Source: Candidatus Thorarchaeota archaeon SMTZ1-45
GTDB lineage: Archaea; Asgardarchaeota; Thorarchaeia; Thorarchaeales; Thorarchaeaceae
Reading direction: 5' to 3'
DNA length: 41,462 bases
NCBI GenBank assembly: GCA_001563335.1
Contig: LRSL01000077.1
Span: forward strand, 1 to 41,462
The notes beneath the pieces were generated by a model. That model did not search any database and was not told where the DNA came from. It worked only from the letters and a program-made list of their open reading frames with translations. The translations under genes and the position numbers were made by a program. Every line of letters begins with the position of its first letter. The stretch's first letter is position 1. Of the stretch, positions 13,442-31,247 are shown piece after piece.

Positions 13442-13984
13442 TCACTTCCCCTCCTTGACAAGTCGACCAGTGCGAGTTTCACTTAGGATTTTTTTCACAG
13501 GATCCGTTGAGAGACCTGGCACCTCCGGTTCGAGATCCAAGTCTTCCCGCTCCCAATCAGCAGTGACTGTATATAGCTGACCCTTCTCAATGAGCTCCTT
13601 TCCAAGTGCGATGATACTACTTGGAACACTTCCCTCTTCAGCTGCAAGGTTCTTGCAGTCAAAGAAGATGTCTGTAACGCGTACAAGTTGAGGACATCGT
13701 TCCTGACACTCAAAGCATGTCAAACAGAGCCAGATTTCCTTCGAGGAGAGCACCTTTTCCCTCATCCCAAGGAGAATCATCCGAATCAACTGATGCGGTT
13801 TGATGTCCCAGACATTTGCAATTGGACATGCAGCTGTACAGGTTGAGCAAGCAAAACATGCAGATAGATCTTCGGCATTTGGCATGCTTTGTATCTCTCT
13901 TCTAAAACCTAGGTCAAGCTGTGACATGTCAATTGGGTCAATAAGAACTTCTGGAGGGGTTATCTTGTTTCGAGTTTCAGTCAG
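13442..13984 (-). CDS. hdrC: Heterodisulfide reductase subunit C (copy 2)
   Basis: CFACSTCTAACP and WLCLTCFECQERCPQ. The track starts at ATG 13927, but the frame is open back to CTG 13984, which overlaps the hdrA stop (CTGA) and lies 7 nt after GGAGGTG. Confidence 0.93.
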   Translation of the reverse strand: MTETRNKITPPEVLIDPIDMSQLDLGFRREIQSMPNAEDLSACFACSTCTAACPIANVWDIKPHQLIRMILLGMREKVLSSKEIWLCLTCFECQERCPQLVRVTDIFFDCKNLAAEEGSVPSSIIALGKELIEKGQLYTVTADWEREDLDLEPEVPGLSTDPVKKILSETRTGRLVKEGK

Positions 13985-16014
13985 GTTGATGCACCTCCAG
14001 ATGTCTTTTCTGCCTGCTCACGTTTTTTGTGAGCTGAAATGAGACCGAGAATCTCAGCCTCTATCTGTTCGGTCGTGAAATGCCTTCGCGAGATGGCTCC
14101 CGTGGGACACACAACCTGACACTTTCCACAGCCTGTACAGAGGATTGAACTGATTTCTGCCAGTTCTTTTTCGTCATCTGTGACAGTCATAGATATTGCA
14201 GTGAATGGACAGACCTTCTCGCAGAGACCGCACCCTATGCAGAGGGCATCATCAACAACCGCCTTGTCCATCTGCACTCGGACCCTGCCCTTGAGCACAT
14301 GTGACGCGGCTGCACTTGCTGCAGCTTTTCCGTCAGCGACGCTAGCAGGGATATCCTTAGGGCTCTGACAGGCTCCAGCGATGAACACACCTCTTGATTT
14401 TGTGTTCACCGGTTCGAGTTTTGGATGGAGCTCCTTCATGAAGCCCCCTTCACTTCGATCCACACCAATCATATGTGCAAGATGAGCTGCTCCCGGCGAT
14501 GGGTCTATAGCCATGGTCAGGACTACCATGTCAAAGTTGAGACGTAGTAGACTACCTGTCCCTTGATCGAAGACGGTGAAAGAGATACTTCCATCCTTTT
14601 CTTCAGTCATGTCACTCGGGAACCCTCGCACGAATCGTACTCCACTCTCACGCACTCGTCTGTAGAACTGTTCATACTCTTTACCTCCAGCCCTGAGCTC
14701 ATGATAGATAATCCATTGTTCAATGTCATCAGGATACAATCTTTGAGTCATCTCTGCATGTCTGAGTGTGTACATGCATCCAAAGTTGCAACACCAGGGG
14801 CGACGATTCTCATCTCTTGAACCTGCACAGTTGATATACGCTATGCGTTTGGGAGGCTGCTCAAACTTCGGTGGGATGAGTATCTTACCCTCAGTTGGTC
14901 CCACCAGACTTAGTAAGCGACCATACTGACCTGCGGTTACCACACGGTCAAATTTGCCTCCCCCATATTCAGGCAGTTCCTTGATGTCCATCTCTATGAA
15001 TCCTGTTGCAGCAACGATTGCACCAACAGTGATCTCAATCTCTTCCTCTTCAACATCATATGAGATGGCATCACTGGGACACTTCTCGGAACAGATAGTG
15101 CAACCATCGGTCCAGTGAGTGCATGATTCCCTGTCAAGGAAGAACACTCCTGGAACCGCTTGTGGAAAGGGTTTGTAAATCGCCTTTCTCTCCTCAAGTC
15201 CGAGATTCCACTCATCAGGGCCTTTTGCAGGACAGTTTCGTTCACAAGCTCCACAGTTGATACATTTCTCTATGTCAACATATCGAGGGTATTTCTTCAC
15301 GCGTACCCTGAAGTTACCATAGTCCCGTTCAACCTCAATGACCTCTGAATAGCTGAGAAGCTCAATATTCTTGTGACGTTCAACTGCAGATAGTTTGGGA
15401 GAGAGAATACACATCGAGCAGTCAAGTGTAGGGAAGGTCTTTTCCAGACGGGCCATATAACCTCCGATTGACGTGTACTTCTCTACGAGGTATACCTTGA
15501 TGTCCTTGTCAGCAAGGTCAAGCGCAGATTGTATTCCGGCTATGCCAGCACCTATCACGAGAACACTCTTTTCCACCGGATATTCCTCAAATCCAATGTC
15601 TTCCAGCTTCTTTGCCCGTTCAATCGCAGCCACGACAAGGTCGTAGGCAACTTTGTATGCCTCTTCTGGGTTGTCGTCATGGATCCACGTGTCATGTTCT
15701 CGAAGGTTTGCCTGAGCCAAACGGAAGGGATTGAGACCATTCTCTTCAAGAATCTCTCTGAATAACTGTTCATGGAGCTTTGGCGTGCAAGCGCCAATAA
15801 CAACACCGGTGAGATTGTGATCTTTGATCTGCTTGGCTATTGTGTCCTGTCCATCTTTTGAGCAGGTGAACATGTTGGATGTAGTGAACACAACACCTGG
15901 ATAGTCCTTAAACTCCCGGGCAAGCTTCCTGACATTGATTACACCACCAATGTTAGTCCCGCAGCTACAGATGAAGACTCCAATACGATCTTCCGTGTCC
16001 TTCTTTTTTGTCAA
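13981..16014 (-). CDS. hdrA: Heterodisulfide reductase subunit A, full length
   Basis: N-terminal CSCGTNI domain, GAGIAG FAD motif, KTFPTLDCSMC, inserted 2x[4Fe-4S] domain, CAGSRD...CCNFGC, C-terminal 2x[4Fe-4S] domain. TTG start 9 nt after GGAGGTG. Confidence 0.95.
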   Translation of the reverse strand: MTKKKDTEDRIGVFICSCGTNIGGVINVRKLAREFKDYPGVVFTTSNMFTCSKDGQDTIAKQIKDHNLTGVVIGACTPKLHEQLFREILEENGLNPFRLAQANLREHDTWIHDDNPEEAYKVAYDLVVAAIERAKKLEDIGFEEYPVEKSVLVIGAGIAGIQSALDLADKDIKVYLVEKYTSIGGYMARLEKTFPTLDCSMCILSPKLSAVERHKNIELLSYSEVIEVERDYGNFRVRVKKYPRYVDIEKCINCGACERNCPAKGPDEWNLGLEERKAIYKPFPQAVPGVFFLDRESCTHWTDGCTICSEKCPSDAISYDVEEEEIEITVGAIVAATGFIEMDIKELPEYGGGKFDRVVTAGQYGRLLSLVGPTEGKILIPPKFEQPPKRIAYINCAGSRDENRRPWCCNFGCMYTLRHAEMTQRLYPDDIEQWIIYHELRAGGKEYEQFYRRVRESGVRFVRGFPSDMTEEKDGSISFTVFDQGTGSLLRLNFDMVVLTMAIDPSPGAAHLAHMIGVDRSEGGFMKELHPKLEPVNTKSRGVFIAGACQSPKDIPASVADGKAAASAAASHVLKGRVRVQMDKAVVDDALCIGCGLCEKVCPFTAISMTVTDDEKELAEISSILCTGCGKCQVVCPTGAISRRHFTTEQIEAEILGLISAHKKREQAEKTSGGAST

Positions 16015-28873: not shown

Positions 28874-30571
28874 TCATCTGGTCTTAGCAAAGTAGACAAC
28901 AACTACTAGAGCCACAATAGCGACTCCAGCAACAACAGCAATGAGGAGCGGGTCGAGTGTTGAAGGAGCAGCCAAAGATAACACAAACTCTGTGAAACCA
29001 GTATAGTTGTTTCCAAAGAGAATGCTCACACCAGAGCTGGTCAAGTCCTCAGAGAGTACAATCGTGGCCTGATCCGTGAGTGATTGTCCACCACCAACCG
29101 CGATGATGGAGTCTAGAGTTACTCCAGCTTCGTCTAGAATAAATACACCCTCTTTACTGCCGAGACGAGGGCTTAGGCAATCGGTCCTTGTAGAGAGGGA
29201 GATGCTTTCTCCTGTAGTTGTCCCTCCATATATACCTGTAATTGACACATCAAGCCTAGGAGTCATCTCAAGCAGATAAATGAATGAAGGAAGCATGTCC
29301 TCCCAGAGTGAATCAATATAGTCCTCGACTGGGTTGAAGTAACCATAGATACCTTTCCACTCGCGGATGATGTGTGTGTTGTTATTCTCTATGATCACAT
29401 GAGCCTCCTCCAAGTCCACCGTTCCATTATGGTATAACTCTAATGTGATTGGAACTGTTGTACCTCGCTCATAGTACATCCACTCATCCCAGGAGCCACT
29501 CAACGCGGTCTCTAGTTTAGTTTTTGCAGGTAAATATCCTAGATACTCGTTGAATCCATCTGGGAGAATATCATCAAAATCAAGACATATCTGATAGTAG
29601 AGTAGATTCTCAGGCCAGTTGTCATATTCATCAGTTGGGAAATAGGTCGCGTTTATTCCAGAGTGAAGAGAGTATGCCATCGCAAACCTGTGGTTTAATG
29701 CAAAGTCACGGAAAGCTTGAGTTTCTGGTTCTGAGAATGGTGCTGTTCCACAATAGACCTGTGTTATCGGATTTAATAGATCTGGATCATTAAGTCCCCA
29801 GAATGAGGCATAATTACGATTGAGGTCAACAAGACCAACCTCATCTTCATTGACTAAACCATCCTCATCGTTGTCAATTCCCTCCCAGTACTCCCAATCG
29901 TAGTCGTTAATGTCAGGAACTTCTGTTGGAGACTCTTTTTCGTAAACAAGGAAATTAGAGATCCATCCGTCACCATCTACATCATCAATATCATCCTCAG
30001 AGAAGAGCCCATCACCATCATTGTCGAAGGGTCTCAGATTCTTTCTGAGCCAGTGATTACCTTGATTGACTACAATCTCCAGGGCATCAGGATTGAGCGT
30101 GGGGATGATGTATATCTCTTGAGTGTCAATATACTCTGTAATAATGGCATCAACCCCATAACTGTTGAGTAGGTAGAGAATGAATCGCAGTGCCATTTCA
30201 ACAGTAATCTGTTCTCGACCGTGATGTTGAGCAACAACAAGTGTCTTAGCCTTCTGAACAGTGTTCAACTCGTTTGTGACTCGAAGACACGTCAGGTTTC
30301 GACCTTGGTAGCTTTGACCAATTACTTCCAAATCAACTAGTTCAGGCACTAGGCTGTGTATGTTCTCAATCTCCTCATCCACCTCCGATGGATCATGAAA
30401 CTGATCAGCATAGAGCAGTGAAATATCATCCCAAGTACGAGTGACTGATGGTGTGACCACTTTCTCTATGACCGGTGTTGTACCTACCTGTTCTGAAGCC
30501 ATCACTTGAATAGGTGCAATAACTAATGTGAGAATCAGGGAGAGGAGTACAATTCTAGATTTTGCTTGTAT
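28874..30571 (-). CDS. Membrane-anchored M14 family zinc carboxypeptidase
   Basis: HHGRE, NPD, RKN, VDLNRN, PFSEPET, SLHS, ELY; DxDxDG-type loops; C-terminal TM. The signal peptide QAKSRIVLLSLILTLVIAPIQVMA lies upstream of track start 30505 and can only start at ATA 30571 or ATC 30574. Confidence 0.92.
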   Translation of the reverse strand: MQAKSRIVLLSLILTLVIAPIQVMASEQVGTTPVIEKVVTPSVTRTWDDISLLYADQFHDPSEVDEEIENIHSLVPELVDLEVIGQSYQGRNLTCLRVTNELNTVQKAKTLVVAQHHGREQITVEMALRFILYLLNSYGVDAIITEYIDTQEIYIIPTLNPDALEIVVNQGNHWLRKNLRPFDNDGDGLFSEDDIDDVDGDGWISNFLVYEKESPTEVPDINDYDWEYWEGIDNDEDGLVNEDEVGLVDLNRNYASFWGLNDPDLLNPITQVYCGTAPFSEPETQAFRDFALNHRFAMAYSLHSGINATYFPTDEYDNWPENLLYYQICLDFDDILPDGFNEYLGYLPAKTKLETALSGSWDEWMYYERGTTVPITLELYHNGTVDLEEAHVIIENNNTHIIREWKGIYGYFNPVEDYIDSLWEDMLPSFIYLLEMTPRLDVSITGIYGGTTTGESISLSTRTDCLSPRLGSKEGVFILDEAGVTLDSIIAVGGGQSLTDQATIVLSEDLTSSGVSILFGNNYTGFTEFVLSLAAPSTLDPLLIAVVAGVAIVALVVVVYFAKTR

Positions 30572-30788
30572 GATTTTTGCTCACCTCTTTTGTTTTCCAG
30601 TATGATTAGATTCCCAGGTGTTTCATCGGACAATAATGCGCTCCGGGACCTAATTGCAGACTTTCACAGTAGCCCCAGTCCCTATAATAGCAGTTTAGTT
30701 TCACGTAACATCTCGCGGTTTTATTCAATCACTCCAAAACAATGAACATAAGAGGAGGAGAACGAGATTGTTCAAGCGGCGGCAGTTC

Positions 30789-31247
30789 ATGAAAAAAGCA
30801 ATCATTGTCTATGAAAGCGTTTATGGTAACACAAAGAAGATTGCGGAGGCAATCTGTGAGGGCATTAACAAGGCTGAGGGAGTGAAATGTGTAGTCAAAA
30901 AGACGGGAGAGATACACACTGACGATCTCTGCGATTATGATGCAATTCTGTTTGGATGTCCAAACCATAACCAAGGACCAGCGTTGAATCTTCTTCGATT
31001 CATTGATAGAGCTGCTATAGTTCATCTCAAGGCAAAGATTGGTGCAGCATTTGATACGTATACTGGCGGTAACAAGGATGTTGCTGTCGCGAAGCTAGAA
31101 ACAACTATACTCGAGAGACTTCCAGGCATTTCCCTTGAGGGGAGATTATCAGCCAAGGTCACTAGCCGAAAAGGACCGCTTGCTGCGGATGAAGAGTCAA
31201 AAGCGATAGAATTTGGGAAAGAGTTTGGGCAGAAGATTTTGTTATAG
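30789..31247 (+). CDS. Flavodoxin-family protein
   Basis: IVYESVYGNTKKIAEAI, DAILFGCP, AAFDT; ATG 30789. Confidence 0.9.
   Translation: MKKAIIVYESVYGNTKKIAEAICEGINKAEGVKCVVKKTGEIHTDDLCDYDAILFGCPNHNQGPALNLLRFIDRAAIVHLKAKIGAAFDTYTGGNKDVAVAKLETTILERLPGISLEGRLSAKVTSRKGPLAADEESKAIEFGKEFGQKILL

Follow-up and report, generated by a model that had tools for sequence, protein, structure and literature searches.

Where does translation of a peptidase begin when the reading frame that encodes its leader holds no canonical start codon? The question is raised by contig LRSL01000077.1 of Candidatus Thorarchaeota archaeon SMTZ1-45 (assembly GCA_001563335.1), which was analyzed over its entire length as a single window of 41,462 nucleotides (nt) and which belongs to a 3.54-Mb draft metagenome-assembled genome (119 contigs, 42% G+C, 88% complete). 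A gene for an M14 carboxypeptidase on the minus strand of this window has a Shine-Dalgarno (SD) sequence followed by a hydrophobic leader, and its first ATG or GTG lies at the very end of that leader. On comparative sequence grounds, we consider it highly probable that translation starts at the AUC codon at 30574-30572, that the product is a precursor with an export signal, and that this weak start has been maintained. The features of the gene are as follows.

28874-30574, minus strand: M14 carboxypeptidase precursor, complete coding sequence (566 codons and stop)
30581-30587, minus strand: SD sequence GAGGTGA; its final three bases (30583-30581) are an in-frame TGA that closes the frame upstream
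30572-30574, minus strand: ATC (AUC), putative initiation codon, 6 nt behind the SD sequence
30569-30571, minus strand: ATA, second codon (Ile), private to this genome at spacing 9; not a conserved start
30497-30574, minus strand: predicted signal peptide, 26 codons, with n-region QAKSR, hydrophobic core IVLLSLILTLVIA and c-region PIQVMA; cleavage predicted after VMA
30500-30505, minus strand: first canonical in-frame starts, GTG 30505-30503 and ATG 30502-30500; the database entry uses the ATG (542 amino acids)
29294-30373, minus strand: Peptidase_M14 domain (Pfam PF00246), residues 68-427, with the HGRE zinc motif at residue 118 and an acidic insert
28886-28954, minus strand: predicted C-terminal transmembrane anchor, approximately residues 541-563, at the 19-residue hydropathy maximum; the basic tail KTR follows

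Reading frame and encoded protein

Behind the TGA at 30583-30581, the minus strand reads GCA AAA ATC ATA CAA GCA AAA TCT AGA ATT GTA CTC. A preliminary description of this DNA had reported these codons and the GAGGTGA heptamer with its in-frame stop, and was correct to the base. The TGA lies two codons ahead of ATC 30574-30572, and the frame then contains no ATG, GTG or TTG until GTG 30505-30503, directly followed by ATG 30502-30500. The leader could thus be translated only from an AUH codon (AUA, AUC or AUU), as the same description had argued. Counted from ATC, the GTG and ATG are codons 24 and 25, at the extreme end of the hydrophobic leader (..APIQVMA/SEQ), and a start at either one would, as it also stated, remove the export signal.

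The encoded protein matches Peptidase_M14 over residues 68-427 (E=1.6e-41, 143.3 bits against a cut-off of 21.6), a match that spans profile positions 4-283 of 286. The H-x-x-E zinc motif is HGRE at residue 118, and the motifs SLHSG and LELY, which may hold the distal His and the catalytic Glu, are visible in the translation. The C-terminus consists of a hydrophobic stretch of about 22 residues followed by KTR, with a 19-residue hydropathy maximum of 3.13 at residue 543. Within the M14 domain, the acidic insert (approximately 29800-30100, residues ~160-255) carries D-x-D-x-D-G-like repeats (DNDGDG, DVDGDG, DNDEDG), which resemble calcium-binding loops. No family was matched in an NCBIfam scan of the peptidase or in an Rfam scan of positions 30350-30800, and the initiation region, which is A-rich, is no more folded than shuffled controls (z=+1.0).

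Errors in sequencing or assembly, a mutation private to this genome or the decay of a pseudogene might produce a frame that opens in this way, and the fragmented, incomplete state of the metagenome-assembled draft lends this some plausibility. Contigs from two public marine-sediment runs (X1 and X2) span 30354-30612 with 0 differences to the window. Run X1 is possibly the source sample; X2 is a separate sample from a separate study, and the identity of its contig therefore shows that the ATC start region is not a sequencing error. A third run (X3) contains a relative that is ~90% alike and spans 30373-30578; its differences near the end are unlisted, making it uninformative on the start codon. 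The frame runs unbroken over 566 codons, Pfam matches the domain over its full length, and the start arrangement is kept in 60 of 61 related loci (see below). The sequencing error or private single-nucleotide polymorphism that the preliminary description had named as able to overturn its case was thus not found, and we assign a negligible probability to error, private mutation or decay.

Conservation of the start arrangement

Related loci comprised 20 same-genus orthologues (61-100% protein identity) together with loci from genome and metagenome collections, 61 in all. Each of the 20 orthologues has GAGG TGA, two variable codons and then ATC (17) or ATT (3). Across the larger set, the pattern of GAGGTGA, 6 nt and ATH is present in 60 of 61 loci, a recurrence that chance does not explain. 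These 60 loci collapse to 37 distinct 5' ends, of which 36 have GAGGTGA and one GGGGTGA. At 6 nt behind the heptamer, 27 have ATC, nine ATT and one ATA. ATG occurs at this position in none of them. The alignment of orthologue 5' ends that the preliminary description had proposed as a check thus shows a conserved ATH start.

Per-site diversity, computed among 22 distinct sequences, is 0 at the seven SD bases and at the A and T of the start codon, while the 47 nt upstream are saturated with change (0.65). In the leader, diversity at codon positions 1, 2 and 3 is 0.41, 0.22 and 0.57, respectively, a pattern characteristic of translated codons kept by purifying selection. The first canonical start shows no comparable stability: its position varies among 23 orthologues between codons 3 and 102, with 21 of them reaching no canonical start before codon 7, and in L016 its use would cut into the M14 catalytic domain.

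Signal peptide features

By simple in-house measures of charge and hydropathy, the leader is built like a Sec-type (class 1) signal peptide in all three of its regions. The n-region has a median charge of +2 over the 37 distinct 5' ends, and no sequence falls outside 2.34-3.28 in its best 12-residue hydropathy. The predicted cleavage site has A at position -1 in 35 of 37 sequences and V, T or G at position -3 in as many. Position -2 is Met in 25 and L, I, V, Q, T or A in the other 12.

The frequent Met at position -2 bears on a different reading, in which GTG 30505 or ATG 30502 is the sole start, the upstream stretch is untranslated and the product is a tail-anchored peptidase facing the cytoplasm; a milder form would have two isoforms. 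These two are the only canonical codons, and the start chosen by gene callers is among them. No SD sequence lies ahead of either codon, however, and neither the Met, which is replaced in 12 of 37 relatives, nor the first canonical start, which ranges over some hundred codons among orthologues, is conserved. The 26 codons upstream of the cleavage site also show coding-type constraint, with signal-peptide features in all 37 sequences, and distant homologues have a hydrophobic N-terminal leader behind an ATG. We therefore regard a sole start at GTG/ATG as very unlikely; occasional internal initiation at 30505/30502 may occur beside the AUC start.

Exchange with ATG in other genera

In other genera of the same family, the starts of 22 loci were read by eye. 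Eight have the heptamer, 6 nt and ATT, ATC or ATA, two have the heptamer, 5 nt and ATT, and the remaining 12 start with ATG or TTG. One locus (L214) reads TGA AAC ACA ATC AGA GAA, and its sister L213, from the same genus (different from that of the window), has ATG at exactly this codon, with the TGA changed to CGA. In L036 the ATC is followed by ATG, and some metagenome proteins open with MTLSRYHV, MITPSK or MKITRSK. Other Asgard families supply six homologues (31-46% identity), all of them with an ATG start and a hydrophobic N-terminal leader. Both the exchange with ATG and these ATG-started distant homologues place the N-terminus of the family at this point. The AUY (AUC or AUU) state appears to be an old one that extends over several genera, with reversion to ATG in some branches.

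Fit to the ribosome and the initiator tRNA

Two 16S rRNA genes from the same genus end in GGATCACCTCCT, which is complementary to GAGGTGA. Spacing was surveyed at 335 first ATGs of this genome, each preceded by a match to GGAGGTGA of 6 nt or more, and was measured from the aligned 8-mer. It is 4-7 nt in 252 of the 335 cases; a spacing of 6, that of the ATC, accounts for 59 and a spacing of 9, that of the ATA, for 13.

These counts separate the two codons between which the preliminary description had left the choice open. Initiation at ATA 30571-30569 would make use of a known near-cognate start codon; a gene for an ABC ATPase in this genome appears to start with ATA behind GGAGGTG, and among the relatives of the peptidase, two show ATA at the very position of the conserved start. 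The window's ATA, on the other hand, lies one codon past that position, at a spacing that is rare in this genome. Its site is occupied by ACA in 26 of the 37 distinct relatives and by ACA, ACG, CCA, AGA and others in 36 of them, leaving the window genome alone with ATA. Initiation at ATA is in our judgment highly improbable, and the AUC, conserved and at spacing 6, is the member of the earlier pair that stands. Base 30569, which the preliminary description had treated as decisive (ATA versus ATG), is not critical, given that the ATA is private and disfavoured in spacing.

An initiator-type tRNA gene on contig C69 has a CAU anticodon, three G:C pairs beside it and U72. Since an ordinary initiator-type tRNA is present, the AUC would presumably be decoded by Met-tRNAi with a third-position mismatch. 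The 3' half of the C69 gene was located on the minus strand, at position 162332 of the contig's reverse complement. The 5' half seems to be interrupted, the gene is not called by ARAGORN, and it may be intron-containing or split.

Non-standard decoding, either by read-through of the TGA with a tRNA-Sec or by an Ile initiator tRNA with anticodon GAU, would offer another route into the leader. ARAGORN predicts a tRNA-Sec, but the frame upstream of the TGA runs into another TGA after 14 codons without containing a start codon, and the DNA there is not conserved. Contig C20 encodes a tRNA(GAU) whose end pair is A1:U72; in 4 of 8 relatives, however, G1 replaces this A1, the T-loop and the anticodon stem belong to the elongator type, and the gene stands in tandem with a tRNA-Ile(UAU), from which we conclude that it is an ordinary Ile tRNA. 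A special initiator tRNA(GAU) was accordingly rejected, and we give non-standard decoding in either form almost no credence. Termination-reinitiation from an upstream short open reading frame was likewise dropped: that frame has no start codon within the window, and an ATG AGG TGA mini-frame is present in 7 of 20 orthologues only.

The genes of the tandem tRNA-Ile(UAU) and tRNA-Ile(GAU) (G000 C20:8613-8767; L110 1017-1168) encode the CCA end and have weak anticodon stems, with Rfam tRNA scores of 55.9 and 50.2 bits; 10 of 28 genus genomes keep both. An Ile tRNA with a UAU anticodon is uncommon in archaea. The predicted tRNA-Sec (TCA) is located at G000 C29:24794-24884 and suggests that some TGA codons of the genome may encode selenocysteine.

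For initiation at the AUC, we propose the following sequence of events. GAGGUGA would pair with the 3' end of 16S rRNA and place the AUC, 6 nt downstream, in the P site, where the ordinary initiator Met-tRNA (anticodon CAU) would read it with a mismatch at the third position. The product would be a precursor with a Sec-type signal peptide that is cleaved after VMA, leaving a predicted mature N-terminus of SEQVGTTPVIEK... (SEQVGT). The catalytic domain would then be extracellular and tethered by the C-terminal membrane helix. The combination of a weak codon and a strong, invariant SD sequence would constitute a maintained low-output start, kept across several genera of this Thorarchaeota family.

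Near-cognate starts elsewhere in the genome

Several points weigh against a maintained AUC start. Among public sequencing runs, no RNA run was found to contain the stretch. The genome's own 16S rRNA was not found in the assembly, and the anti-Shine-Dalgarno sequence used here is that of genus relatives. The Ile codon is kept even where ATG stands directly ahead of it (L022 and the MITPSK-type proteins), so inertia could account for some of this conservation. That a weak start is under selection would, moreover, be read from the absence of ATG in 37 sequences that are related and not independent. The last point is genome-wide. In a broad count of codons within the first 80 codons of 2838 open frames of this one genome, to which both the broad and the restricted count refer, ATG, TTG and GTG are strongly enriched behind SD sequences, and ATT, ATC and ATA (ratios 0.7-1.2) and CTG are not. 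AUH initiation is therefore rare rather than general.

An excess of near-cognate codons becomes visible solely after sites with a nearby canonical start are excluded, that is, in a count restricted to codons without a canonical start upstream in frame or within the next 8 codons. An SD match of at least 6 nt at a spacing of 4-7 precedes 10 of 1112 ATT, ATC, ATA and CTG codons, compared to 22 of 10961 other codons (odds ratio [OR] 4.5, p=4e-4); at a control spacing of 10-13 the numbers are 2/1112 and 28/10961 (OR 0.7, not significant). A match of at least 5 nt gives 23/1112 versus 105/10961 at spacing 4-7 (OR 2.2, p=0.0013) and 11/1112 versus 105/10961 at the control spacing (OR 1.03, not significant). 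Restricting the anchor to GAGGTGA left too few sites for a usable count. The excess corresponds to approximately 8-12 SD-led genes in the genome, and the rate of near-cognate starts comes to about 10-12 per 3.5 Mb. Among canonical codons, TTG is a frequent start behind strong SD sequences (match of at least 6 nt), with 61 TTG compared to 147 ATG and 34 GTG.

Individual genes point in the same direction. An SdhA/FrdA-like flavoprotein gene (G000 C16:12414-14096, minus strand; L042) has an ATT start behind GAGGTGA and 6 nt; counted from this ATT, the FAD_binding_2 domain begins at residue 7, and the first canonical start comes 38 codons later. In 24 genus orthologues the start codon is ATT in 21 and ATA, ATG and CTG in one each, while orthologues of other genera start with ATG, GTG or TTG in 22 of 22 cases. 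The start of an ABC ATPase gene is ATC in this genome and ATC or ATT in 7 of 22 relatives, the others having a nearby ATG. Further cases are a second ABC ATPase (ATA, behind GGAGGTG), a DNA methylase (CTG) and a nucleotidyltransferase (ATT). Another lies in the window itself.

13442-13984, minus strand: HdrC-like 4Fe-4S protein gene, with a putative CTG start at 13984-13982, 7 nt after GGAGGTG (site 13982-13998)

Among 28 relatives of this gene, 26 have ATG in place of the CTG codon, and one further relative also has CTG. Several further candidates, among them C106 (ATA) and C33 (CAC/GGT), were dropped because a plausible canonical start lies nearby. Together with these individual cases, the excess in the restricted count suggests that near-cognate starts are real but sporadic in the lineage. 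The AUH initiation that the preliminary description had seen in this DNA thus appears to hold for the peptidase gene, as one of a scattered few; it is not a general property of decoding.

Relation to known systems

The AUU starts of bacterial infC, which encodes IF3, and of Escherichia coli pcnB are textbook examples of maintained weak starts. The M14 gene resembles them in that an AUH codon stands behind an SD sequence, is conserved rather than replaced by AUG, and is missed by gene callers. In infC and pcnB the AUU start lowers output, and the output of the M14 gene may be low for the same reason. It differs from them in belonging to an archaeon, which selects starts with aIF1, aIF1A and aIF2 instead of IF3, and in that the codon is mostly AUC. 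Its product, moreover, is a predicted exported peptidase rather than an initiation or RNA-processing factor, with no known autoregulatory loop. As a further parallel to infC, a weak AUH start was considered for the aIF1 gene and rejected, as that gene has GTG. The aIF1 (SUI1) gene (G000 C29:39538-39888) appears to begin at this GTG behind AAGGAG, with an out-of-frame ATG just upstream.

Near-cognate initiation in eukaryotes (at CUG, GUG, ACG or AUU) is likewise similar in that Met-tRNAi reads a codon with one mismatch under a stringency of the eIF1/aIF1 type. Unlike the eukaryotic case, placement in the M14 gene would depend on SD pairing and not on scanning and Kozak context. As a protein, the peptidase is like signal-peptide M14 zinc carboxypeptidases (PF00246) in its nearly full-length profile match, its H-x-x-E motif and an N-terminal export signal such as that of the ATG-started Asgard homologues. 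It is unlike typical members in its C-terminal transmembrane anchor, its acidic D-x-D-x-D-G-rich insert and its non-canonical start. The gene is a well-conserved archaeal (Asgard) example of a known device, the maintained near-cognate start of the infC type, and not a new mechanism.

The literature that we searched yielded no report of AUU or AUC starts in Asgard or other archaea. The archaeal start codons named in a review of archaeal initiation (PMC7531240) are AUG, GUG and UUG only, and the term AUU is absent from it. Work cited in PMC6237735 indicates that aIF1 discriminates against non-canonical starts, and PMC8410842 discusses the uncertainty of start prediction.

Consequences for annotation and for the lineage

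The database entry of the window's gene (P0001) has 542 amino acids. Among its 120 best database relatives, 107 have 556 amino acids or fewer, and 6 cover at least 99% of the 566-residue precursor; the short entries indicate that the predicted signal peptide is cut off in most records. Because the ATH start is kept in relatives and ignored by gene callers, most database copies would be without their export signal, and secretome and localization predictions for these sediment archaea would miss this extracellular-type peptidase. The same annotation loss would affect the FAD-binding fold of the SdhA-like enzyme and the P-loops of the ABC ATPases. Gene callers for archaeal metagenome-assembled genomes should therefore admit ATH and CTG behind strong SD sequences.

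An AUY start kept across several genera provides a natural substrate for testing the stringency of the eukaryote-like aIF1/aIF2 machinery. We also put forward, tentatively and as a rather doubtful extension, that Thorarchaeota keep AUY (and some CUG) starts under selection as translational attenuators or sensors, in which a strong, invariant SD sequence would bring in the ribosome and the stringency of aIF1 against the near-cognate codon, relaxed or tunable in this family, would set the output. If true, the device would parallel, in archaea, infC autoregulation and near-cognate start control in eukaryotes, and a few percent of the SD-led genes of the lineage, including those for exported hydrolases and respiratory flavoproteins, would belong to the attenuator class.

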